The notes under the pieces are model-generated. The model was given only the letters and a program-made list of their open reading frames with translations. It made no database searches and had not been told where the DNA came from. Both the position numbers and the translations under genes were made by a program. Of a stretch of DNA of 20,000 bases, positions 1,905 through 17,532 are shown one piece after another (position 1 is the first letter of the stretch; each line of letters opens with the position of its first letter). Where the stretch lies: IMG/VR virus record IMGVR_UViG_3300046663_000194; one strand, written 5' to 3'. The DNA comes from an uncultured virus (IMG/VR IMGVR_UViG_3300046663_000194). Its lineage: Duplodnaviria > Heunggongvirae > Uroviricota > Caudoviricetes.

Positions 1905-2009
1905 GGGAACGGCCGCGAATCTGCGGTTCAGGCCCCCGGCCTTAGAACCCCCGATTGAGGGGTGTCCTAACCCCCCGTCAGCGCATCATAATTTAGGCTA
2001 AAATTTTAC

Positions 2010-2037
2010 TTGCCCTGCCGCTGGCAGCGGTTATCCT
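2010..2037 (+). promoter_or_regulatory. Possible sigma70-type promoter TTGCCC-N16-TATCCT for the early leader/operon
   Basis: Preceded by an AT-rich tract (1989-2008); a predicted start near 2044 coincides with the beginning of the structured segment. Confidence 0.4.
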
Positions 2038-2044
2038 TCTTTCT

Positions 2045-2242
2045 GGGCCCCCGGTTCGGGGGGCCGGGGAGAGGCGGATCGAGAGCAGACGGCCCAAGGG
2101 CGACACTTCCGGGGTAAGCGGTTAAGGCCCACCCAATCCAGACGCGGGATTGCAAGTGAAGCCGAAGTCCACCCAAAGACGAAGGTAAAACCTTTGCACG
2201 TAGCGGCGACACAGGGCTGAAACAGTCCCGACCGACCTACCC
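2045..2242 (+). ncRNA. Candidate structured non-coding RNA / long 5' leader
   Basis: No credible + strand ORF. Stems: ggccccc/gggggcc (2046-2065), aatcc/ggatt (2135-2151), aaggt/acctt (2182-2194), and gggctg/cagtcc within gtag..cgg / ccg..ctac (2200-2240). Internal repeats ggcgacac x2 and ccacccaa x2. No known family recognised. Confidence 0.45.
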
Positions 2243-2261
2243 TAAAAACTTTTTACAATTT

Positions 2262-2300
2262 ATTGCGGCGGGGAGTTCTCGCCGCGTTAGGCAATTTGCC
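2262..2300 (+). repeat. Intergenic hairpin element A, copy 1 (divergent)
   Basis: attgc + stem gcggcgggg/tctcgccgc + ggcaatttgcc mini-hairpin, just upstream of the SD for the ORF at 2319. Confidence 0.5.
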
Positions 2301-2318
2301 AATCAATGGAGATTGAAA

Positions 2319-2531
2319 ATGTCGCAGGAATTGAAGTTTAACGGACGCGGACTAAAGACGACGGCGGGCGCTCGCGGGCGGCTGCATCTTATAGCGCACC
2401 TGCTAGATGAACGGTGCCGCGCTTTCGTAGCAGAGCAGAACGGAATGTTTTACCCGGTTGTGATGCTAAGTGAAGCCACGCAGCACTGCTTCGCAATCGC
2501 TAGCCTGGGCGTGACGGTCGTTCGAGTTTGA
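2319..2531 (+). CDS. Hypothetical phage protein (70 aa)
   Basis: SD GGAG 7 nt upstream of ATG 2319, preferred over TTG 2313. Confidence 0.7.
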   Translation: MSQELKFNGRGLKTTAGARGRLHLIAHLLDERCRAFVAEQNGMFYPVVMLSEATQHCFAIASLGVTVVRV

Positions 2532-2601: not shown

Positions 2602-3375
2602 ATGAGCAAGATCACCAAAAAACTCGCCGCCAAGGTTGACGCGGCAATTAAGAAGTACAACGAGAACGAGTTGATTACCACTCAGAAGCAGATCGACAAG
2701 ATTACCGCTGACGTTCGGCGGAATGGAATTCCCGACAGCCTCAACCGCTGGATCGGGATGACGCCCGCGCTACTCGTTGCCAATAAGGCGCAACGAACGC
2801 GCATCACTAACCAGCAAAAGAGGATGGACACTATGTCGAAAGTCGGAACGAAAGAAGCAGCGCTGCGCGAGCAACGCGGCTCCGTCACTACCCCGGCCAC
2901 TACAAACCTCACCGAGAAGGACAAGGTGGCTATCGTGGAAATTCAGGCACAAAAGGAAGCCAAGGTCGAAGCGAAGGCCAAGGCGAAGGCGGAGGAGAAA
3001 AAGGAGAACAAAAAAATCCGCGAAAAACAGAAGGCGGCGATCAAGGCGGGCGAGGTCGTTACCAAGCCCACAACGGTGACGGCAATCGCCAAGGTAACGC
3101 CAGAGCCGAAGACGGCGGCACCGAAGAAGACCAACGGCACCGCCAAGACAACCGAGCATAAGGGAGCGTTCACCGCCAAGGTGATCGATGATCTAATGCC
3201 GATGGTAAAGAAGGGAACCACGTTAGGCGCGCTGATTAGCGCCGCGCGTTGGGGTTCCTGCGGCAACCCGGTTCGCCGAGCAACGCGGTTTATTACGACC
3301 GTGGCGCAAGGTGACTTCGGCCTCAAGGTTAAGATCGAGGGCGACGGAGAAGAAGCGAAAGTGAAGGTTGCCTGA
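2602..3375 (+). CDS. Lys/Ala/Thr-rich protein with C-terminal DUF3489-like winged-helix domain
   Basis: Highly basic low-complexity middle (KAKAKAEEKKENKK, KTAAPKK). C-terminal KGTTLGALISAARW...RRATRFI...FGLKV resembles the GAT-x-x-E-I-x-x-A-x-x-W...R-x-F-I...GL pattern of DUF3489. An alternative start at 2833 is possible. Confidence 0.65.
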   Translation: MSKITKKLAAKVDAAIKKYNENELITTQKQIDKITADVRRNGIPDSLNRWIGMTPALLVANKAQRTRITNQQKRMDTMSKVGTKEAALREQRGSVTTPATTNLTEKDKVAIVEIQAQKEAKVEAKAKAKAEEKKENKKIREKQKAAIKAGEVVTKPTTVTAIAKVTPEPKTAAPKKTNGTAKTTEHKGAFTAKVIDDLMPMVKKGTTLGALISAARWGSCGNPVRRATRFITTVAQGDFGLKVKIEGDGEEAKVKVA

Positions 3376-3384
3376 TTACTTTTT

Positions 3385-3404
3385 GCCCCGCGCCAATGCG
3401 GGGC
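3385..3404 (+). repeat. Hairpin sharing the cccgcgccaatg core with element B
   Basis: gccccgcg-ccaa-tgcggggc; 3387-3398 is identical to 7188-7199. Confidence 0.55.
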
Positions 3405-3448: not shown

Positions 3449-4372
3449 ATGTTACAAGTTACCCGAAAGACAGACGCCGAGACGATACTTTCATCGAAGG
3501 CGATCATCGCGGCACCGACTATTAGCCATTGGACGGCCCGCAAGTTCGACCGCAAGATGACCAAAGACCTCCACGAGCAGAAGAAGATGTCTGCCGATGC
3601 AGGGCGATACAGGAAGTATCTAGTCGGTGAGAACGACCTAAACGAGATTGCCCAGATTGTCGGGCGGGCGCGGTCCTATCACCTGTCGGCAACGCTCGCG
3701 TGGCTGGATCAAGAGGGCCGCCGCTTGTTGCCATCGCAAAAGTACGTCGAATACTGCGAGCAAATGAACACGCTCAAGCAGGAACACGAAGCGGCGGTCA
3801 ACAGATTCGTTCCACGCTACCCGGCAATGATCGAGCAAGCTAAGGCGCGCCTCGTTGATGCATTCGATCCAGCCGACTATCCGAACCCGCAGTCGATCAG
3901 ATCGAAGTTCAAATTCGACCTGAAGTTTTACCCGGTCGAGACATCGGACTTTCGTTGCCAAATCTCATCTGACGACATCGAGACACTACGCGACCAAATG
4001 AAGGACGGCATGCGCGATGCGTTGGAGCAGACGCAACGCGAGGCCATGCAGCGGGCGGTCAAGGCGATGGAGCACATGGTCGAGCGGCTCCGCGCCTTCA
4101 GGCCCGCAGAAAAGAAGAAAGGCATGAAGGGGGGCCAGAAGGTCGAAGGCAAATTCCACGACACGCTCGTGGAGAACGTTCGCGACCTGATCCCGGTCCT
4201 CCGGTCGTTCAACTTCGCCAACGACAAGGCTTTCGATCAAATCTGTGACGACATGCAGAAAGACCTTTGCCGTTACGACGCCGACGAATTGCGGGACGAC
4301 CAAGACACCCGTAAGCAAGTAGCCGATTCCGCCGAGAAGATATTGGCGGACGTTTCACAGTTCATGGCCTGA
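3449..4372 (+). CDS. DUF3150-like phage protein
   Basis: Motifs ISHWTARKFD, AGRYRKYL, TLAWLDQEGRRLLP, FDPADYP, KFKF...P...DFR match the DUF3150-like family commonly found beside MoxR AAA and VWA genes; SD GGAG. Confidence 0.75.
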   Translation: MLQVTRKTDAETILSSKAIIAAPTISHWTARKFDRKMTKDLHEQKKMSADAGRYRKYLVGENDLNEIAQIVGRARSYHLSATLAWLDQEGRRLLPSQKYVEYCEQMNTLKQEHEAAVNRFVPRYPAMIEQAKARLVDAFDPADYPNPQSIRSKFKFDLKFYPVETSDFRCQISSDDIETLRDQMKDGMRDALEQTQREAMQRAVKAMEHMVERLRAFRPAEKKKGMKGGQKVEGKFHDTLVENVRDLIPVLRSFNFANDKAFDQICDDMQKDLCRYDADELRDDQDTRKQVADSAEKILADVSQFMA

Positions 4373-4423
4373 TCGCAGCTTGGGTGCCTCGTTCGCGGGG
4401 CACCCTATCGGCAATCCTGCCGA
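4370..4423 (+). repeat. Intergenic hairpin element A, copy 3
   Basis: tgatcgcagctt-gggtgcctcg-ttcg-cggggcaccc-ta-tcggcaatcctgccga; stem changes are compensatory relative to copy 2. Confidence 0.75.
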
Positions 4424-4439
4424 ACTAGGGGACTACAAA

Positions 4440-5501
4440 ATGTCACAAGACATCAACCTTGAAATCGAGAATCCAGTTACCTCGCGGGAACTGGTTGACC
4501 TAATTCAACTACATTGGAACGCTAAGCCGAAGCCGCAGCCCGTCATGATTTGGGGCGATAGCGGCATCGGCAAGTCGGACCTCGCACACCAACTCGCGGC
4601 GGCGACCAAGCGCAGGCCCGTCATGTTCATGCTCAACGTTCGCGAGCCTGTGGACATGCGCGGCGTCCCGATGGTCGATCCGAAGACCAAGACGACGCTG
4701 TGGTGCGCGCCGTCCGAACTGCCCAAGGCAGACGGCAGCGACGGCGACACGCTTCTGATCCTCGACGAAATCAATACCGGCGGACTTCAGATGCTGGCAG
4801 TGGCGATGCAGCTTGTTCTCGCGGGCGAGATTGGCGATTACAGACTGCCAAGCAACTGCCGCATCCTCGCGATGGGCAATCGAACGAAAGACAGCCGAGC
4901 GGTTGTCCAGATGCCGAAGCCACTCCGCAACCGCTTCGCGCATTACACCATGATAATCGACCACGACAGTTTGGTCGCGCATCTAAAGACGGTCGGTTGC
5001 CGCGACGAAATCGTAGCGTTCATCCGCTTCCGACCAGAGTGCGTTACCCGCCAGCCGAAGGGCGATGCAAACGCCTACGGCTCGCCTCGCTCCGTTCACC
5101 GTTGCGAGTCCTATGTAGACGCCAAGCCGCATCTGCGGTTGAAAGCGTTTACCGCACTCATCGGCAAGGATGACGGCACCGAGTTGGAAGCCTTCGTCGC
5201 CATGTATCAGAGCCTGACTTGCATCGCGGACGTACTACAGAACCCGACCACTGCAAGGCTTCCTTCGCAGCGTTCGGAAATGTACGCGGTCGCAACGGCG
5301 CTCGGCAGACTGGCAGACAAGAAAAACTTTGCAAACATCATCACGTATGCAAAGCGCCTCGGCCAGCTTCATCGGGATATGGAAGTCGTCACCGTTACCG
5401 ACGCAACCGACCGCGACGGCAAGCTCTGTGAGTGCGCCGCCTATACGCAATGGGCGCTCGCCAATCAGGACGTGACGTTGCGGCATTTCGAAATCGCTTA
5501 A
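4440..5501 (+). CDS. MoxR-related AAA+ ATPase
   Basis: Walker A GDSGIGKS, D-M-R-G-V-P motif, Walker B LILDE, sensor I MGN, arginine finger PLRNRF, SPRS motif. Start moved to ATG 4440 (SD AGGGG). Confidence 0.9.
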   Translation: MSQDINLEIENPVTSRELVDLIQLHWNAKPKPQPVMIWGDSGIGKSDLAHQLAAATKRRPVMFMLNVREPVDMRGVPMVDPKTKTTLWCAPSELPKADGSDGDTLLILDEINTGGLQMLAVAMQLVLAGEIGDYRLPSNCRILAMGNRTKDSRAVVQMPKPLRNRFAHYTMIIDHDSLVAHLKTVGCRDEIVAFIRFRPECVTRQPKGDANAYGSPRSVHRCESYVDAKPHLRLKAFTALIGKDDGTELEAFVAMYQSLTCIADVLQNPTTARLPSQRSEMYAVATALGRLADKKNFANIITYAKRLGQLHRDMEVVTVTDATDRDGKLCECAAYTQWALANQDVTLRHFEIA

Positions 5502-5526
5502 CTTAACTCAAACAATGGAGACATCG

Positions 5527-6885
5527 ATGAAGATGATGACCCGGCAGGAAATGGAGCGGGCGGCAGCGGCGATTGTCCGCAAGGCCCGCTTCGAAATCCT
5601 CGCCAAGCATAAGTTCTACGCGGTGCTGCTGTCGCAGACGACAGACGTTGCCCGGTGGGATATTCCCACGATGGCAACCGATAGCGTCACCCATTTCTAC
5701 AATCCGCAGTTTGTTCTCGATCAGAGTTTTAGAAAAATCGTAGGGACAAACATTCACGAAGCAGAACATGATGCTCGCCATCATTCGACACGGCGCAAGG
5801 GTCGCGACCCATTGCTGTGGAACTACTCATGTGACTACTCGATCAACCCCGACATCATTGATGAGGGCTACGAACTGCCGGATGGCATTCTTCTTCGCGA
5901 TGACCTGCGCGGTCTAGGCGCTGAGGAAATTCACCGCATTCTTCGCAGCGAACAAGACCAGAAGCGGCAAGAGGAGCAGAAGGATGAAGGCCAGGAAGAC
6001 AAGGACGGTGACGAGCAACAAGAAGGCAGTTCGCAAGGCGATGAGCAAGGCGACCAGTCCGAAGGCCAAGGCCAGAGCGAAGAAGGAACAGGCTCTGATG
6101 CAGAAGCTGATGCGGGAACTGGCGATGGCGCTACCGAGGCCGAGGGCGCAGGCGCTGGCGGTGATATTCCCTCATCGTGTGGAGCCGGTAGGTGCGGCGA
6201 AGTTCTCGACGCGCCTGGAGATGAGGCGGAGCAGGCGGACCTCGACGCGCGTTGGGAAGTGACAACGCGCCAAGCGGTCAGCATGGCGAAGAAGGCCGGG
6301 ACGCTTCCCGGTCATTGGGCGGCGGAAATCGAACGCCGCCACACGCCGACGCAAAACTGGAAAGAGGTTTTGCGCGAATACATCGACTCGTTTGCTGATC
6401 GAGTGCAAACGTGGAACCGAGTAAACCGCCGCTTTGTATCTTCGGGAATCACGCTCCCAAGCTATCAGCGCGACGGCGTGAACAAGGTTTGCTTCATCAT
6501 CGACGCTTCCGGCTCGATGGGCGGTCAGCACGTCAAGATCGCAAACGAGCTACAGGCGGCGCTCGATGATGGGTCGATCACCGATGCGGTCTTTATTTAC
6601 TGTGACACAGAGGTCTATCACACCGACCGTTTCACAGGCGGCGACCGCATAACACTGGCACCGATCCGCTTGGGCGGCACCGACATGAAGCCAGCCTTTG
6701 CACAGATCGAACAGGACGATGGCGATGCTTCGCTTATCATCTGCTTGACCGATCTTTACATCGGCGACCCAGGACCGGAGCCGCAGCAACAAGTGCTGTG
6801 GATGGCCTACGGCGATCCGCGATCAATTGAGCATGAAGGCTCCCTGCTTCCTTGGGGCCGAGTGCTGGACGTGGACACCGAATAG
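5527..6885 (+). CDS. DUF2201-type putative metallopeptidase + VWA domain protein
   Basis: TMATD, HExxH (HEAEH), WNYSCDYSIN, acidic Gly/Gln/Glu linker, then MIDAS motif DASGSM, GGTD, LTD. SD GGAG favours ATG 5527. Confidence 0.9.
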   Translation: MKMMTRQEMERAAAAIVRKARFEILAKHKFYAVLLSQTTDVARWDIPTMATDSVTHFYNPQFVLDQSFRKIVGTNIHEAEHDARHHSTRRKGRDPLLWNYSCDYSINPDIIDEGYELPDGILLRDDLRGLGAEEIHRILRSEQDQKRQEEQKDEGQEDKDGDEQQEGSSQGDEQGDQSEGQGQSEEGTGSDAEADAGTGDGATEAEGAGAGGDIPSSCGAGRCGEVLDAPGDEAEQADLDARWEVTTRQAVSMAKKAGTLPGHWAAEIERRHTPTQNWKEVLREYIDSFADRVQTWNRVNRRFVSSGITLPSYQRDGVNKVCFIIDASGSMGGQHVKIANELQAALDDGSITDAVFIYCDTEVYHTDRFTGGDRITLAPIRLGGTDMKPAFAQIEQDDGDASLIICLTDLYIGDPGPEPQQQVLWMAYGDPRSIEHEGSLLPWGRVLDVDTE

Positions 6886-6910
6886 GAGGGCGAAAGCCCT
6901 CCACTTTCTT
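6885..6910 (+). terminator. GC hairpin with GAAA loop and weak U-tract (weak terminator or processing hairpin)
   Basis: ggagggc-gaaa-gccctcc followed by actttctt, directly after the VWA gene stop. Confidence 0.55.
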
Positions 6911-6950
6911 AACCCGCGCCGATGACGCTAACCAACGGAGAATGACGATG
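6910..6950 (+). repeat. Start-associated element B, copy 1
   Basis: taacccgcgccgatgacgctaaccaacggagaatgacgATG. Confidence 0.8.
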
Positions 6951-7187
6951 CCACGCGAAACATTAGATACATTGATAAGCCGCGATCCATTCGCGCGCAC
7001 GGAATTACATCGGTTCAACTCGCGCCACCTTGGACAAGGACTGACCTGTGATTGGTGTGGCTCAAAGGGCCGACAGCTAAAATTCGATTGGCTGCTGTAC
7101 CGCTACACCACAGAAACGGATGGTGGTTCGATGGTTCATGATGGCGTATTCTGCTGCAAATCTTGTCACGATAGTTATCACAGCTAA
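6948..7187 (+). CDS. Small Cys-rich (zinc-finger-like) protein, 79 aa
   Basis: CDWC ... FCCKSCH; the likely start is ATG 6948 (or 6942) after SD GGAG, not 6852. Confidence 0.75.
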   Translation: MPRETLDTLISRDPFARTELHRFNSRHLGQGLTCDWCGSKGRQLKFDWLLYRYTTETDGGSMVHDGVFCCKSCHDSYHS

Positions 7188-7225
7188 CCCGCGCCAATGG
7201 CGCTAACTGATGGGGAATGACGATG
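7185..7225 (+). repeat. Start-associated element B, copy 2
   Basis: taacccgcgccaatggcgctaactgatggggaatgacgATG. Confidence 0.8.
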
Positions 7226-7392: not shown

Positions 7393-7431
7393 TAACCCGC
7401 GCTACTGGCGCTAACTGAGGAGACGACAATG
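7393..7431 (+). repeat. Start-associated element B, copy 3
   Basis: taacccgcgctactggcgctaactgaggagacgacaATG. Confidence 0.8.
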
Positions 7432-7800
7432 AAGTGCAGAGTTATAGAGCTTGTGGCCGATGTGACAAACCCGGCCGCAGATCGCCGATCTAGGGACTGG
7501 AACAAGACTCCACTGCTCAAGAAGGGGCAGCGGTTCACGGTGCACGAGGGTAAGGATTTTGAGTTTCTCTACTCTTGCGACCATAGATACTCACACGAAA
7601 TCGCGCATAGCGATTTGGGCAAGGCCATTCTTGCTAACTCTGTCACGGCAGAGGCGGCGACTGTGACCGAGCTTGCCCGCGTACACGATTGCGATTTTAG
7701 CGGCGACGAAATCTTACGGATACTCGTCAAGCTTGGTCGCGTCGATGATACGGACTTCGCCGCAGTTGGCGAGGCCCTTGCTGCCGACGAAAGCCTTTAA
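7429..7800 (+). CDS. Hypothetical phage protein (123 aa)
   Basis: Strong SD GAGGAG within element B. Confidence 0.8.
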   Translation: MKCRVIELVADVTNPAADRRSRDWNKTPLLKKGQRFTVHEGKDFEFLYSCDHRYSHEIAHSDLGKAILANSVTAEAATVTELARVHDCDFSGDEILRILVKLGRVDDTDFAAVGEALAADESL

Positions 7801-7817
7801 CCCAGGAGACGACAATG
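7798..7817 (+). repeat. Truncated element B (hairpin absent)
   Basis: taacccaggagacgacaATG; shares taaccc and aggagacgacaatgaa with copy 3. Confidence 0.65.
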
Positions 7818-7988
7818 AAATATCGTTTTTATCTGGAATGCCCACGCTGCAGTCATGAGGCCGAGTTCGTGACGGACAATTACTGGCAGAAGCCGCGCTT
7901 CCAGTGCGGCGACTGCCTGATGGACCGCGTTGAAATCGTGGAAATGAAAGTGGTGACATCGGAGCAGTTGCCCACTTTCTCACAATAG
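7815..7988 (+). CDS. Zinc-ribbon-like small protein, 57 aa (not in ORF track)
   Basis: MKYRFYLECPRCSHEAEFVTDNYWQKPRFQCGDCLMDRVEIVEMKVVTSEQLPTFSQ; two CxxC pairs; SD AGGAG. Confidence 0.8.
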   Translation: MKYRFYLECPRCSHEAEFVTDNYWQKPRFQCGDCLMDRVEIVEMKVVTSEQLPTFSQ

Positions 7989-8668: not shown

Positions 8669-8701
8669 GGGCCGCCCCTCGCGGGGCGGCCCCCTTTTTT
8701 T
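8669..8701 (+). terminator. Intrinsic terminator ending the rightward operon
   Basis: 10-bp stem gggccgcccc-tcgc-ggggcggccc followed by cc and T7, between convergent operons. Confidence 0.9.
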
Positions 8702-8705
8702 GCTT

Positions 8706-9224
8706 TCACTCAGGCACCCAGCCGTTTGCAAAGGCCGCAGCAGAACCGCGCTCGATCATTCCGCCCGTATCCTGAAGGCGGTCCACTTCTTCGTCTTCCA
8801 TCCCTAGCCGCCGCATAATCTCCTCCGCTGGAATTTTCATTTCATGCGCCAGCGTGCGCACAATATCCGCCATCTTTAAGACGCCATGATTTCCGCGCGC
8901 CCGATTATGCCGGATGGTAGACATCATCTGGTGCGCCGCATCGCCGGGTCGCAATCGGACTACCGGGACCAGCCCCTTAGTTAAAGCCTTTACGTCCTTG
9001 TCGGCCGAAGCGAGCACCCATCTATGAAAGCCATCTACGAGCTCACCGTCCTGGCGGGCGACTAGCGGCTGAGTCCAGCCGTCCTCTAGCAGCGACACCT
9101 TGAGCAATTCTAGTTCGGGCGGCGCAACGTGATTAGGATTATAGTTGTTGGCGCGGAGCGTGTCGGGCTTGACCCACTCGACCGCGCTGATCGGTTGCTT
9201 CTTTAGGCCCGGAATATCCACCAT
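8706..9224 (-). CDS. IbrB/YbdM-like ParB/Sulfiredoxin-fold protein
   Basis: QPISAVEWV, LRANNYNPNHVAPPELELLKVSLLEDGWTQP, VDGFHRW, STIRHNRARG, RLGMEDEEVDRL: characteristic IbrB/YbdM motifs. Confidence 0.9.
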   Translation of the reverse strand: MVDIPGLKKQPISAVEWVKPDTLRANNYNPNHVAPPELELLKVSLLEDGWTQPLVARQDGELVDGFHRWVLASADKDVKALTKGLVPVVRLRPGDAAHQMMSTIRHNRARGNHGVLKMADIVRTLAHEMKIPAEEIMRRLGMEDEEVDRLQDTGGMIERGSAAAFANGWVPE

Positions 9225-9273
9225 AGCTGCACCATTATAACCGCGAGGAGAATCAAGACCGGCCAGGGTTCTC

Positions 9274-10524
9274 TCACGTAGCGAGTTCTTTACGGTAATG
9301 CTCCCACGCTTTTTTCATCTCTGCCTCTTGCCGGAATGGCCGAACTGGTTGCTTACGGCCTTTATAGTCGCCGCGCATTGCAATCATCAACAGGAACCGC
9401 CAGGAAACACCCGTATCCGGATGCGGCACCGTTGGCGCTATAGGGTCCGAGGTCTTACCGTAGTGATTACGAACCCAGTTCTGCACCCGGCTGGCAATCT
9501 GCGAGCGGTACGGCTGTGGATGCTTAGCGATCCAGTACCGGACCCAATTAGGCCACGTAAAATTACCCGGCTTGGATGGTAGAGCGCTGAAAGCATAAAG
9601 TTCAGTCGTAGAGTAGCGCGCCGCCGTTGCGCTACCGGGAACCCGGTTACTCATCTTGTCCCAGATGTCGGGAAAACACACCGAATACATCCACAGGTTT
9701 TGCATCGGTTCCTCGCCGTAAGGTGGCGCGCAACGCTGCGCGTTGCGGGAGACACCGGCCATTTCCATCGCATCATAGGCGCGGTTGTAATCGAGCTTGA
9801 ACTGCTTGGGGTAGGTCCAGACGTCAGCCGTTGACCAGTCGTAGATCGGATAGACCTTCCAGAGATTATCCGCCCAAGGCCGCACATAGGGTCGGGTGTC
9901 CCGATGCCGATGGAGGACAGCGCGAGTCCGCGCGAGGCTCTCATTGGCCCGTATACCCATAACCATCCCTACCCGGCCGTAGTCCAAGGCATCGAATATA
10001 AGAGGTACGCTTTCGGGCATCGTAGGGCGGGCCGCGGTAGCCCTTGGGAACCCCGGCACGGCCCCTGCCGTAATAGCCTCCGGGGGTAGGGGCCTAACCC
10101 ATTTGGCCTCTACCTCCGGCCCCCAGGGATACCAGAAGGGTTCCCGCCTGGAACAGCCGTTTCGATGCTGAATGGGTAGGCAATACCAGCGTACTTCTAC
10201 CCCCGGTAGCACAGTGCAGCGGCGCACGTAATGCTCTGTATCGTAGGGAATAGCCTCCTCGTCATAGAAAAACGCTATAACCCGCTGCCCCCGCGCGCGG
10301 GCTACCTCAAGGGTCAGGTGTAGACAAACCGTCGAATCCTTGCCCCCGCTAAATGAGACTGCGAGCGTATCGAATAGCTTGTAGCAATCGTTTAGCCGTT
10401 CAAGCGCTAGGTCGAGCACGCTACGGTCAACAAGCTTTTTCTTGGCGTAGACTCCTGTCGATAGCGACTTGCTCGACTTACTATCTTGGACCAGATCATC
10501 GCCGCTGTAGCCTTCGTCGCTCAC
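9274..10524 (-). CDS. IbrA/YbdN-like PAPS-reductase-family (PP-loop) protein with DUF3440-type C-terminus
   Basis: PP-loop SFSGGKDS, DEEA, WYCLP, GIRANES, YPIYDWSTADVW, YNRAYD, QRCAPPYG. The GTG start overlaps the cupin stop (GTGA). Confidence 0.9.
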   Translation of the reverse strand: MSDEGYSGDDLVQDSKSSKSLSTGVYAKKKLVDRSVLDLALERLNDCYKLFDTLAVSFSGGKDSTVCLHLTLEVARARGQRVIAFFYDEEAIPYDTEHYVRRCTVLPGVEVRWYCLPIQHRNGCSRREPFWYPWGPEVEAKWVRPLPPEAITAGAVPGFPRATAARPTMPESVPLIFDALDYGRVGMVMGIRANESLARTRAVLHRHRDTRPYVRPWADNLWKVYPIYDWSTADVWTYPKQFKLDYNRAYDAMEMAGVSRNAQRCAPPYGEEPMQNLWMYSVCFPDIWDKMSNRVPGSATAARYSTTELYAFSALPSKPGNFTWPNWVRYWIAKHPQPYRSQIASRVQNWVRNHYGKTSDPIAPTVPHPDTGVSWRFLLMIAMRGDYKGRKQPVRPFRQEAEMKKAWEHYRKELAT

Positions 10525-11246
10525 GTTATTTCCTGCGTCCTGATACGGTCTATGTTCTTGGCCGAGACGCCGCCAACGAGAGTGCGGTTTAGCATCGGGT
10601 GTTCTTCATGCGTCGGGCCGAAGTCGGAATCCGGATGAAAGACGGTAAGCTGCATCGCACTATCGGTTGTCTCGAAAGCGTGCACGGCGTCCGGGGCCAG
10701 GATGAACATACTACCCGCGTCTAGGCTCTCGGTGCCGTCCTCTGTATGGCACAGGCCATGACCAGTGTGGATCATGCCGATACGCACGCTAGGGTGCGTA
10801 TGTTTGGTCTGTGAAATACCGACCGGAAAGTGCAGGAAATTAAAGCATGGCTCGCCGCGTAGCGGCGGCGAGATTAACAGCGTGTCCGAACAGCCGTCGA
10901 TATATTTCAGCCGCCCTTTGTCTTCCAGAAACCGGCCGACAATATTAAGGCCGAAGTAGTCATTGCGAAATGCAATAAAGCCCTTGCTCCCCTCCGAGGC
11001 AAGGATCTTGGAGCGATTGTTCTGTGGGATTGAAAAGTAGGAGTGATCGAACAACACCCGATCAAAGCGACCGTCAACCATCACCCACGTTTGTCCTTCA
11101 TGCAGATAACCGAACAGCGTACCCTTGCCATGTATCTCCAAGGATTCCATGTCACTGTTTATGCCGTAGGCGCGGCACGGAAATTCCGCATCATCGAACG
11201 CGGCCATTAGGCCATGCCGCACTGGCTCGATAGTGGCTGGCTTCAT
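10521..11246 (-). CDS. Cupin-fold protein
   Basis: C-terminal cupin motif 1 GISQTKHTHPSVRIGMIHTG and motif 2 GSMFILAPDAVHAF; GRLKYIDGCSDTLL segment; ATGA overlap with the upstream ParB gene. Confidence 0.8.
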   Translation of the reverse strand: MKPATIEPVRHGLMAAFDDAEFPCRAYGINSDMESLEIHGKGTLFGYLHEGQTWVMVDGRFDRVLFDHSYFSIPQNNRSKILASEGSKGFIAFRNDYFGLNIVGRFLEDKGRLKYIDGCSDTLLISPPLRGEPCFNFLHFPVGISQTKHTHPSVRIGMIHTGHGLCHTEDGTESLDAGSMFILAPDAVHAFETTDSAMQLTVFHPDSDFGPTHEEHPMLNRTLVGGVSAKNIDRIRTQEIT

Positions 11247-11914
11247 GTTTTCCTCTTTGTATTTTTTGCCATTCCGATTAGCGCCTCCGCAGTCGTGCGC
11301 AGCTTTAGCTTGTCACGCTCCCCGGATAGCCATGTAACTACGATGTCTCGATCCTCCGGCATCATATCAAAGCGAAGCTGTACCCCGCGCGTCCCCGGCA
11401 TGACCGCGCTACTCTGCGTCACGCTTTCAGGCTCGATCATGTCGCCCATGAAACTGCTAAGCTTGAAGCCCTCTAGCTCCTGATCGCCGAACCCTAGAAG
11501 CGGCAGATCAAAGCCAGCTATCTCAAGGTCGCGCAATTCTGCGGTAAGCTTTGGAATGTCCCACTCAGCTAATCGACCCAGTTGGTTGTCCGCCACGCGG
11601 TAGGCGCTCTTTTCCTCCACCGTCCAGCCTACCGCTACTGCTACCGGGAAGGATGCAAGACCGAGACGTTGCGCCGCTAAGAGGCGGCCATGCCCATAGA
11701 TCAACACTCCATCCTCATCGACTAGCACCGGCGCAGTCACGCCGAACCGTCGCATACTTTCTGCTAGTTGCTTGACCTGTGCATCAGTATGGCGCAGCGG
11801 GTTGCGCTCGTAGGGCTTAATCTTCTCTATAGGCCAGCGCTCGATCTTATCGACCGGCCAATCCCTAAGCGGCCCCGAATCCTTGGTCTTGATCTTGGTC
11901 GCACTCTTCGCCAT
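11243..11914 (-). CDS. ParB/Srx N-terminal domain protein (phage type)
   Basis: IKPYERNPLRH, QVKQLAESMRRFG, PVLVDEDGVLIYGHGRLLAA, AYRVADNQL...W. Confidence 0.9.
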   Translation of the reverse strand: MAKSATKIKTKDSGPLRDWPVDKIERWPIEKIKPYERNPLRHTDAQVKQLAESMRRFGVTAPVLVDEDGVLIYGHGRLLAAQRLGLASFPVAVAVGWTVEEKSAYRVADNQLGRLAEWDIPKLTAELRDLEIAGFDLPLLGFGDQELEGFKLSSFMGDMIEPESVTQSSAVMPGTRGVQLRFDMMPEDRDIVVTWLSGERDKLKLRTTAEALIGMAKNTKRKT

Positions 11915-15195: not shown

Positions 15196-15423
15196 CTAAA
15201 TGTCAGTCGGCCAAGCCACGTTTTCCGGCCAATATTTGTGAAACGCCATCTCAAGTTCGTCATACTTGCGCAGCGTGATTGATACTTGTCCCTTTCTAAA
15301 CTTGGGCAGGAAGTCGCGATGTCCGTATAGCTTGGCGCTTGCTTGTCCTAGAGTAAGCCGCGTTGCCTTACAGTAAATTCTGGCAAGGTTTAGTAGGCGC
15401 TCGCGTGCTTCGGCTTCGATCAT
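15196..15423 (-). CDS. Cro-like HTH transcriptional regulator
   Basis: LLNLARIYCKATRLTLGQASAKLYG...FL..FRKG..SITLRKYD...F...WPENVAWP pattern of small phage HTH proteins; first gene of the leftward operon. Confidence 0.7.
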   Translation of the reverse strand: MIEAEARERLLNLARIYCKATRLTLGQASAKLYGHRDFLPKFRKGQVSITLRKYDELEMAFHKYWPENVAWPTDI

Positions 15424-15435
15424 GTGAATTTCTCT

Positions 15436-15480
15436 TTGCGTTCAGCATAAAAAAATACTATAAATTAGATTCGTCGTCAA
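15436..15480. promoter_or_regulatory. Overlapping divergent sigma70-type promoters
   Basis: + strand TTGCGT(15436-41)-N17-TATAAA(15459-64); - strand TTGACG(15480-75)-N17-TATTTT(15457-52), in a 76-bp AT-rich gap. Confidence 0.55.
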
Positions 15481-15499
15481 TCCTACTAGGGGCTGCAAA

Positions 15500-16441
15500 A
15501 TGAAACCTGTACGATGGGATGGCACGCTACCAATAAAACGGCCCGGTATTTATGCCGGGGTGCCGATGTCCGTCTATCACAGCCAGGATATTTGTCCGGG
15601 GCCGAGTATCAGTAGCGGTGGCCTCCGTAGGATGTTCAAGGAATCGCCCGCGCACTTTTTTGCTAAGTGGGATGGCAACCCGAACCGTAAGCCGGAAGAA
15701 ACGCCGCGCCACTTCATCTTAGGACAAGCCCTCCATCATTTGCTGCTAGGCGAGCCGGGGTTCGCCAAGTTCTTTGCTATCCAGCCCGCCGAGTATGAAA
15801 ACAAAAAGGGTGAGGTAAAGCCGTGGAGCAATAACGCTACTGATTGCAAAGAGTGGCACGAGGCGCGCAAGGCGGAAGGCCGCAAGGTTTTGTTAGCGAG
15901 CGAAGTCGAAGACATACGCGGCATGGCTGAGAGCCTTGGCAGGCACCCTATTATCAAAGCCGGTGCGCTAAACGGTCAGATAGAACGCTCGATCATCTGG
16001 CAAGATAAAGAGACGGGCATTTGGCTCAAGTCTCGACCCGATACCATCCCCGGTGATAGCGCCGACTTTGTTGATCTGAAGTCAATCTTCAGCGTGCAAT
16101 ATAATGACGTAGTAAAACGCATGGGGGATTCTTCCTACCAGATGCAGGCGGCGTTAGGGCGGCGCGCAGCGCGCGAAGTTCTCGGCTTACGCGCTATCAC
16201 ATGGTCGTTGGTGTTCGTAGAAAAATCCACGCCCTATTGCGTGCGGGTATTCACGCTAAAGGATAACGACCTTGATCGCGGCGAGAAGCAGATACAGGCG
16301 GCGATTCATGCCTTTGTGCGATGCCTAAAGTCTAAACACTGGCCGGGGCCGGGGGGGGAGAGCCGCGATGCAGAATATATTGAACTAAGTGAGCGTGAGC
16401 AGAAAGCCATAGATGACAAGCTTGCAATGATGGAGAGCTAA
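15500..16441 (+). CDS. RecE/exonuclease VIII-like PD-(D/E)XK nuclease (DUF3799 type)
   Basis: YH...SISSGGL...SPAHF, LGQALHHLLL, ERSIIW...LKSRPD...VDLKS, YQMQAA, FVEKSTPY; adjacent to RecT. Confidence 0.9.
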   Translation: MKPVRWDGTLPIKRPGIYAGVPMSVYHSQDICPGPSISSGGLRRMFKESPAHFFAKWDGNPNRKPEETPRHFILGQALHHLLLGEPGFAKFFAIQPAEYENKKGEVKPWSNNATDCKEWHEARKAEGRKVLLASEVEDIRGMAESLGRHPIIKAGALNGQIERSIIWQDKETGIWLKSRPDTIPGDSADFVDLKSIFSVQYNDVVKRMGDSSYQMQAALGRRAAREVLGLRAITWSLVFVEKSTPYCVRVFTLKDNDLDRGEKQIQAAIHAFVRCLKSKHWPGPGGESRDAEYIELSEREQKAIDDKLAMMES

Positions 16442-16443
16442 CT

Positions 16444-17532
16444 ATGAGCGACCTAGAATATATGCCGAGCAACCAACAACAGAAGCCGATGACCAAGCGA
16501 GACTTGGCAACCTTCGGCATGGAAGCGCTGGATAAGACCCGCGCGGGACAAGTAGCCGTAACGCGCGCCGCTGGCGGCGTTTCGTTTGCTAGCGCGCTTG
16601 AGGTAATGGAGTTCGCAAAGCTAATGGCCGTTGCCGACAAAGCGGTGCCGAGGCATTTACGAAACAATGCCGGTGCCTGTCTGCGTATCGTCTTCCAGGC
16701 AGTCGAGTGGCAGATGTCACCGTGGGCGGTCGCGGACAAAAGCTACGAAGTAAACGACCGCATCGCCTATGAGAGCCAACTAATTCATGCCGTGATCGAA
16801 GCCCGCGCGCCGCTGCGCGAGCGGTTGATATGCGAGTACGCTGGCGAGGGGGCCGAGCGCGAATGTCGAGTAGTCGGCAAATTCCTTGACGGTACGGAGC
16901 GCGATTACACGACGCCGCAAATAGGAAAGATACGGGTCAAGAATAGCCCGCTCTGGAAAGACGACCCGGACCAGCAGCTATTCTATGCGGGCAGTCGTAG
17001 TTGGGCGCGCAAGTGGTGTCCTGATGTTCTGATGGGACTCTATACCAAAGACGAACTAGCACGCGATCCTACCTTGGGCCGTGACGAGTCCGAACTGCCG
17101 GGGCCGGGGCTACATGCGCGGCTCGTTAGCGGCAACGTAGATCGAGAGGAAGGACATAGGGAGGGCTATGTTGAAACAGAACTTGGACCTGAAAAAGATA
17201 ACGCAAGTGTGGATGACGCAGAACCACGGGGTGATGATACTACTGCCCCGGCGACTAGCACTGTTCGCAAGGGCAAGCGTAGCAGAAAAACTAAGCCAGT
17301 CGAAGCTATCGCGCCGTCGCCCTCGCTCAAAGCCGAAGATATAAAGAACGCAAAGCAGTGGGCAATCTATTGCGCGGCATGGCTAAGGGAATCTATCAGC
17401 GCTGACGATATTCGCAAGCGATGGGATGCAGAGCGCAAGCTGCGTAACAACGCTGGCGTTACCGCCGACGAGCGAGTGCCGGTGCAGAACTACATGGTAG
17501 ATCGCTGCAAGGAATTGGGAGAACCCCAATGA
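16444..17532 (+). CDS. recT: RecT-family single-strand annealing protein
   Basis: AVPRHLRNNAGACL...QAVEWQMSPWAVADKSYEVN...AYESQL, SPLWKDDPDQQLFY...WARKWCPDVLMGLYTKDEL. Confidence 0.85.
   Translation: MSDLEYMPSNQQQKPMTKRDLATFGMEALDKTRAGQVAVTRAAGGVSFASALEVMEFAKLMAVADKAVPRHLRNNAGACLRIVFQAVEWQMSPWAVADKSYEVNDRIAYESQLIHAVIEARAPLRERLICEYAGEGAERECRVVGKFLDGTERDYTTPQIGKIRVKNSPLWKDDPDQQLFYAGSRSWARKWCPDVLMGLYTKDELARDPTLGRDESELPGPGLHARLVSGNVDREEGHREGYVETELGPEKDNASVDDAEPRGDDTTAPATSTVRKGKRSRKTKPVEAIAPSPSLKAEDIKNAKQWAIYCAAWLRESISADDIRKRWDAERKLRNNAGVTADERVPVQNYMVDRCKELGEPQ

Follow-up and report, generated by a model that had tools for sequence, protein, structure and literature searches.

A predicted structured leader RNA at the head of a putative early operon in an uncultured phage

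In the 20,000-nucleotide stretch of phage DNA analysed here (the window), the 414 nt from 1905 to 2318 hold no open reading frame, as ORF calling confirmed, and no start codon with a good Shine-Dalgarno (SD) sequence lies inside this gap. The original prediction had placed in it a structured non-coding leader (2045-2242) whose 3' segment would alternate between mutually exclusive pairings, which raises the question of whether a functional RNA heads the genes downstream and, if so, what it would do there. The sequences on which that prediction drew were all recovered at their positions. Its description of the genome as tightly packed was roughly right; however, the crude ORF caller left seven gaps of more than 200 nt, some of which are missed genes.

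The phage record from which the window comes is 68,898 bp long (55% G+C) and has terminal repeats; the window makes up its last 20 kb, and the 127-nt identity between its ends (G000:C1:1-127 and 68772-68898) indicates that the record is a circular assembly. The phage is present in DNA runs from soil and rhizosphere (24 runs listed, 15 flagged as possible sources); among the sequencing runs listed, no RNA run contains it. Homologues of its DUF3150 protein occur mostly in alphaproteobacterial prophages and uncultured phages, and the host is therefore probably a Hyphomicrobiales bacterium. Co-oriented genes run from the gap to ~8634 and form a 6.6-kb operon with an orphan 70-aa ORF, a Lys-rich 257-aa ORF, DUF3150 (Pfam score 24.3 bits, slightly below the 24.9 cut-off), a MoxR-like AAA ATPase, DUF2201/VWA and small unknown genes; gene content and position suggest that this is an early operon. 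ESM Atlas returned no usable family for the Lys-rich protein, which could not be aligned with the Lys-rich ORF in the same place of a related phage, L167. The features of the locus are collected in Table 1.

Table 1. Coordinates in the window of the leader, its surroundings and the operon behind it.
Feature	Position	Strand	Support
A/T-rich tract 5' of the -35 box, possibly UP-element-like	1990-2009	+	17/20 A/T
Candidate sigma-70-type promoter (-35 2010-2015, 16-nt spacer, -10 2032-2037)	2010-2037	+	
Perfect 13-bp palindrome filling the promoter spacer	2018-2030	.	Single copy in genome
5'-terminal GC hairpin	2046-2065	+	Pair P ~0.8
Branched 178-nt domain, predicted	2066-2243	+	MFE and centroid agree; most pairs P 0.83-1.0
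Alternative hairpin, absent from dominant fold	2214-2229	+	
Unpaired A/U-rich linker directly 3' of domain	2244-2263	+	18/20 A/T
GC hairpin without U tract	2264-2286	+	Pair P ~1.0
SD GGAG (2308-2311) in loop of 5-bp hairpin, and start codon of first gene	2303-2321	+	
First ORF, 70 aa, orphan	2319-2531	+	Search matched itself only; without Pfam or PHROG family
Lys/Ala-rich ORF, 257 aa, no family	2602-3375	+	Pfam, PHROG, ESM Atlas
DUF3150, MoxR-like AAA ATPase and DUF2201/VWA genes	3449-6885	+	Pfam
Terminator-like hairpin with imperfect U tract, inside operon	6885-6910	+	
Strong terminator-like hairpin, operon end	8669-8702	+	

Other features of the phage were recorded alongside the operon. A 26-nt intergenic element with a small hairpin, directly 5' of the ribosome-binding sites (RBS) of consecutive small genes, begins just past the internal terminator and is present in three copies (6910-6935, 7185-7210 and 7393-7418), with a partial copy at 3387-3398; an RBS block is common to 7412-7433 and 7798-7819. 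The element is known from the present phage and from one occurrence in one other contig, and is possibly a phage-specific promoter, a processing site or a cassette-exchange repeat. On the minus strand, ParB-like, PAPS-reductase/DUF3440, cupin and second ParB-like genes lie in a row at 8706-11914 (Pfam), a run that we take to resemble a DNA-modification cluster. In 15196-17532, DUF3799 (RecE-like) and RecT are oriented away from a small minus-strand gene, and the A/T-rich promoter region at ~15,430-15,490 is bidirectional. The window showed neither an integrase nor a CI-like gene, and the only tRNA of the record, a tRNA-Met at 31207-31283, lies ~20 kb from the leader.

The promoter originally proposed at 2010-2037 is plausible, yet it is of moderate strength and was not listed by a consensus scan. 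With a matrix built on 17 promoters, from related phages and from rRNA operons, it scored 4.7 bits (rank 297 of 137,656 positions), and its 16-nt spacing is the spacing in several relatives. Transcription from it would start near 2044-2045. The palindrome in the spacer was also listed as terminator-like by a scan, and possibly serves as an operator or as a weak terminator of the upstream ORF at 1632-1904.

Pairing probabilities bore out three of the four proposed stems, at 2046-2065 (~0.8), 2135-2151 (0.97) and 2182-2194 (0.99), and gave no support to the fourth, at 2200-2240. The mutually exclusive pairings proposed for 2231-2242 are complementary on paper, but forcing the local one costs 9.3 kcal/mol and the long-range one 8.1 kcal/mol (folds of -70.7 and -71.9 versus -80.0 kcal/mol for the best fold). 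Both are unfavourable because a stronger partner had been overlooked: the predicted partner of the 3' segment is 2066-2084 (P 0.83-1.0), and neither of the earlier candidates is taken. The domain so formed is predicted to comprise a closing helix (2066-2084/2226-2243), a helix at 2090-2095/2214-2219 and a four-way junction with arms at 2098-2130, 2134-2152 and 2156-2212, the tip of the last being ambiguous; the fold is a secondary-structure prediction without tertiary contacts or co-transcriptional folding. The hairpin at 2214-2229 could presumably carry a T-loop, and the local alternative pairing would presumably expose this T-loop-like hairpin; one T-loop-like capped hairpin is at chance level (36% of shuffles). 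No hairpin capped by GNRA or UUCG was found in the leader.

Measured against dinucleotide-shuffled controls, the folding energy is only modestly better than expected (z -1.6 to -2.2). For 2045-2242 the minimum free energy came to -78.1 kcal/mol (z -1.62), a value that 14 of 200 shuffles equalled or bettered; one more base reduced this to 4 of 150, and longer cuts of the leader gave z scores of -2.1 to -2.2. Folding was better on the sense than on the reverse strand (z -1.6 versus -0.6). There are 35 pairs at P>0.9 in the predicted fold, and among 154 same-size segments of the genome, 2 were as well defined and 4 as stable as the leader. The count of confident pairs and the ensemble diversity were each matched by 11% of 150 shuffles, and energy and pair count jointly, a post hoc combination, by none of 150. 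The 8-mers ggcgacac and ccacccaa do each occur twice, as originally pointed out; however, at least two repeated 8-mers arose in 19% of 2000 dinucleotide shuffles, which is chance level. Low U content (11%) was considered as a distinctive trait and rejected, as the next Lys-rich gene has 13%.

Directly 3' of the domain, the linker is one of three such A/T-rich places in 68.9 kb, another being the divergent promoter region near 15,450, and a unique 13-bp palindrome (2243-2255) lies within the linker region. The linker matches the RNase E substrate described in part of PMC3997798, single-stranded AU-rich RNA next to structure, and is for this reason a likely RNase E site. The SD sits 65 nt downstream of the domain within its own small hairpin, and terminator scans found no terminator within the leader. 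A boxA reading of 2248-2263, prompted by a post hoc pattern, was ruled out by an independent matrix, in which the look-alike scores -1.2 bits (rank 641 of 137,774) and the training sites 14-21 bits; it has three mismatches to GYTCTTTAANA, the consensus given in part of PMC5725501.

That the leader belongs to no recognisable family held up in a cmscan-type check, which found no match at Rfam gathering thresholds over the 20-kb window; at E<=10 over 1850-2400, the sole match was a 13-bit hairpin to Acido-1, outside the leader. ARAGORN found no tRNA or tmRNA in the leader. The proposal that homologues be collected and tested for covariation did not bear fruit: only 100% identical copies of the same phage were found, and consequently there is no covariation for the leader. 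Searches with blastn returned only chance pieces of 27-56 nt from annotated phages and plasmids and one 17-nt match from 50 phage records, and blastn with nhmmer found no leader homologue in 242 loci. Motif scans of IMG/VR gave 8 loci for a 16-mer (7 of them unrelated beyond the motif), 1 locus for a 19-mer (the same phage) and 120 loci for a gapped motif, of which only the phage itself was homologous (62 of 64 parts covered). A single-sequence structure model, of limited reach, gave a best E of 0.3 over 50 phage records and 97 loci, with hairpin-only matches. No variant letters turned up in eight DNA runs, so strain-level covariation is absent as well. By blastn and the structure model, the leader is single-copy in the genome. 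Literature searches returned no paper describing this leader or leaders of DUF3150 operons, and supplement files 3-6 of the phage-RNA catalogue in PMC10690425, a partial check with the main alignments outside it, held no match to the leader 16-mer, the family names or the sample number. By these measures (Rfam, the literature and that partial check), the leader sequence and its predicted fold are uncatalogued.

Relatives of the phage were sought via DUF3150, AAA, terminase and the repeated 26-nt element, and these searches found nothing closer than L167 and L374; the metagenome DUF3150 scan extended to 46 of 64 parts, and the contigs carrying two homologues at 61-64% escaped it. In L167 (DUF3150 67%), a promoter is followed by a 384-nt ORF-free leader at 1505-1888 with a z score of -1.4 (-3.0 with 30 shuffles, -0.9 for the first 260 nt). 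In L374 (AAA 57%), the ORF-free leader behind the promoter is 449 nt long (5014-5462), with a z score of -3.1; this leader opens with a C5/G5 hairpin similar to 2046-2065 and contains three GNRA-capped hairpins (P 0.03). A long, gene-free, folded leader behind a promoter is thus kept in position in the nearest relatives, but not in sequence. Four further leaders picked by eye had z scores of -1.8 to -5.4, and 32 unselected promoter-led gaps ranged from -5.7 to +1.3, among which the studied leader ranks 14th. None of six leaders compared with it had more 7- or 8-mers in common with it than shuffles had.

More distant relatives were surveyed for boxA. Across 139 non-redundant DUF3150 loci, some of them close kin, the upstream sense strand (538 kb) held 25 strict boxA sites, spread over 23 loci, and the three control strands held 4, 5 and 9. 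The boxA of these relatives matches that of the rrn leaders in three of four host genomes examined, the fourth contig being too short. Canonical boxA is absent from the studied leader and from those of L167 and L374. In a boxA-led group of 7 sequences (alignment A5), 23 of 35 pairs had changed on both sides, as in 0 of 500 shuffles and against 6-10 pairs in slid controls, for a structure derived from the same alignment; a second boxA-led group of 3 sequences (L034:4332, L053:5051 and L078:632) had compensatory changes in 15 of 43 pairs. Leaders of the A5 type are at L030:3210, L033:3267, L068:4413, L039:3596, L056:4857, L059:2481 and L094:811, and further boxA leaders alongside them at L095:4438, L061:5945, L108:5293 and L096:4806. 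Rfam searches over nineteen of the boxA-type loci returned tRNAs only, and the covariance model of group A5 scored the studied leader at 0.5 bits at best, with filters off. In these promoter-hairpin-boxA leaders the covarying RNA measures at least 135 nt and lies in ORF-poor gaps of up to 1.1 kb, 5' of DUF3150 operons in alphaproteobacterial prophages; the family is uncatalogued, and better supported than the leader studied here.

A hammerhead core consists of CUGANGA and GAAA around stem II. Such cores, with stem II intact, were seen 5' of DUF3150 at L026:6711, L092:6875, L065:7626, L218:187 and L235:1130. Those of L026 and L092 lie ~130 nt past boxA, their stem I differs in sequence and still pairs, and neither had a match at Rfam gathering thresholds.

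The proposal of a structured RNA heading the early transcript is reasonable, and relatives have such leaders at the same position. A real RNA is favoured because the nearest relatives have folded leaders and the distant ones covarying boxA leaders in the same place, and we lean towards the view that the fold has been selected at all. What we put forward tentatively, as the best of the readings considered, is a cis-acting structured early leader that guards against premature termination and is then cut off. Host polymerase would start near 2044, making the leader the 5' end of the early transcript, and the nascent RNA would fold into the terminal hairpin and the branched domain. The domain would act in cis, keeping host RNA polymerase from an early stop in the 6.6-kb operon. 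RNase E would cut the linker and free the domain, after which the mRNA would begin behind the protecting hairpin at 2264-2286. With no canonical boxA in the leader, the domain would need a mode without NusB/NusE, contacting the polymerase directly in the manner of the phage RNA put, or would work through a degenerate boxA in the linker. The argument for antitermination is positional, the slot being tied to antitermination signals in relatives, and it draws further on the length of the operon, the 270 untranslated bases at its start and the terminator-like hairpin at 6885; the leader also adjoins the candidate promoter and heads a long co-oriented operon. Weighing against this role are the missing boxA, the lack of likeness to put and the finding of no sense-strand terminator between the genes of the L374 operon; moreover, the genes behind the internal terminator could have their own promoters in the 26-nt element.

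It is also conceivable, although we think it somewhat unlikely, that the gap has no specific RNA function and is a GC-rich promoter-proximal spacer, with hairpins that are compositional or protect the mRNA 5' end and with palindromes (2018-2030 and 2243-2255) that are DNA operators. The weak z scores, the chance-level repeats, the lack of conservation even in the nearest phages and the uniqueness of both palindromes are as this account would have them, and 5' hairpins stabilise mRNA, as described in part of PMC3997798. Yet 270 untranslated bases would far exceed the need of a stabilising hairpin, the ends of the domain are predicted to pair across 160 nt at high probability, and a covarying RNA occupies the same genomic slot in relatives. 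A functional RNA need not act in cis, and a stand-alone small RNA, first made in infection, freed by a cut at 2244-2263 and acting as a trans decoy or sponge that captures a host protein of defence or RNA binding, would account for the paired 5' and 3' ends, the protecting 5' hairpin and the exceptional A/U linker at the end of the domain. A fast turnover of unrelated RNAs in the relatives' slot would fit an arms race, and the hammerhead cores in the same upstream region of relatives would cut those transcripts. No target or partner is evident, however, and neither ARAGORN nor Rfam recognised the leader; we regard this account as unlikely. CsrA/RsmA sponge RNAs carry several GGA motifs in loops, unlike the leader, in which each of the three GGA motifs is at least two-thirds paired in the predicted fold.

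Two other readings fare worse. In a conformational switch (riboswitch or attenuator), 2231-2242 would swap partners, possibly through a ligand or through translation of a 10-codon ORF (2156-2188), and the three paper partners of this segment, one alternative exposing the T-loop-like hairpin, speak for it, as does the ORF itself, which starts with GTG behind a weak SD and ends with three Arg codons. But the alternatives lie 8-9 kcal/mol above the main fold, and with no terminator in the leader and the SD 65 nt away in a hairpin of its own, no expression platform (a terminator or SD sequestration coupled to an aptamer) was found, so a switch would have no output. One fold dominating and nothing being coupled to it, the switch reading is unsupported, and we consider it very improbable. 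No riboswitch family matched the leader in Rfam at E<=10. A presumed likeness to the FMN riboswitch was discarded: the search pattern missed four FMN aptamers, and at most one hairpin is shared. The ribozyme that the original prediction had also suggested would be a self-cleaving RNA of uncatalogued fold that processes the early transcript, for which the hammerhead cores 5' of DUF3150 in L026, L092, L065, L218 and L235 offer a precedent; with no hammerhead core in 1991-2330 on either strand and no ribozyme family at E<=10, the suggestion found no support, and we deem such a ribozyme very improbable.

On a broader and rather doubtful view, alphaproteobacterial phages with DUF3150-AAA-VWA operons keep a fast-evolving "RNA slot" at the start of infection, in which the new 200-nt RNA would provide termination-proofing free of boxA and Nus or a decoy against host defence. 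The wider pattern, in which related phages fill one slot with structured RNAs that are unrelated to each other, with boxA and with hammerheads, suggests that a layer of early gene control in phages has been overlooked. Few phages are known to have factor-independent RNA antiterminators, and an alphaproteobacterial one, if true, would be a second structural solution as well as a tool for driving long operons. The studied leader alone, being one genome and a predicted fold, is a lead and not a result.

Among known systems, the put RNA of the E. coli phage HK022 is a factor-independent cis antiterminator of ~70 nt with two stem-loops, present in the genome as two similar copies behind divergent early promoters; it binds the beta' zinc-binding domain and needs no phage protein to suppress termination (as described in part of PMC9378689). 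The leader resembles put in being a predicted structured nascent RNA with no N-like partner evident and with terminators downstream; the early promoter in front of it is a candidate of moderate score. Unlike put, with its two adjacent stem-loops, it is ~200 nt long, is predicted to fold into a hairpin and a four-way-junction domain, and is single-copy. With rrn leaders and lambda nut (boxB-boxA, NusB-NusE; described in parts of PMC5725501 and PMC4807359) it shares a promoter, in its case a candidate, followed by a long structured untranslated leader; its A/U-rich segment ends like an alphaproteobacterial boxA, and relatives with the same operon have true boxA. The look-alike of the leader, however, fails the matrix and sits after the domain, whereas in relatives boxA precedes the conserved RNA, at ~40-70 nt from the start; hairpins are present in the leader, but a valid boxA that could anchor a boxB-like hairpin is absent. 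GOLLD and ROOL are likewise phage-encoded and multibranched, but they measure ~650 to over 800 nt, often lie near tRNA islands and are defined by covariation (as described in part of PMC12286853); the leader, at ~200 nt in a gap of 414 nt, falls below their length of over 600 nt and has no Rfam match. As a kind, structured RNAs that head the early operons of phages are already known from put and nut, and the present leader is a boxA-less singleton.
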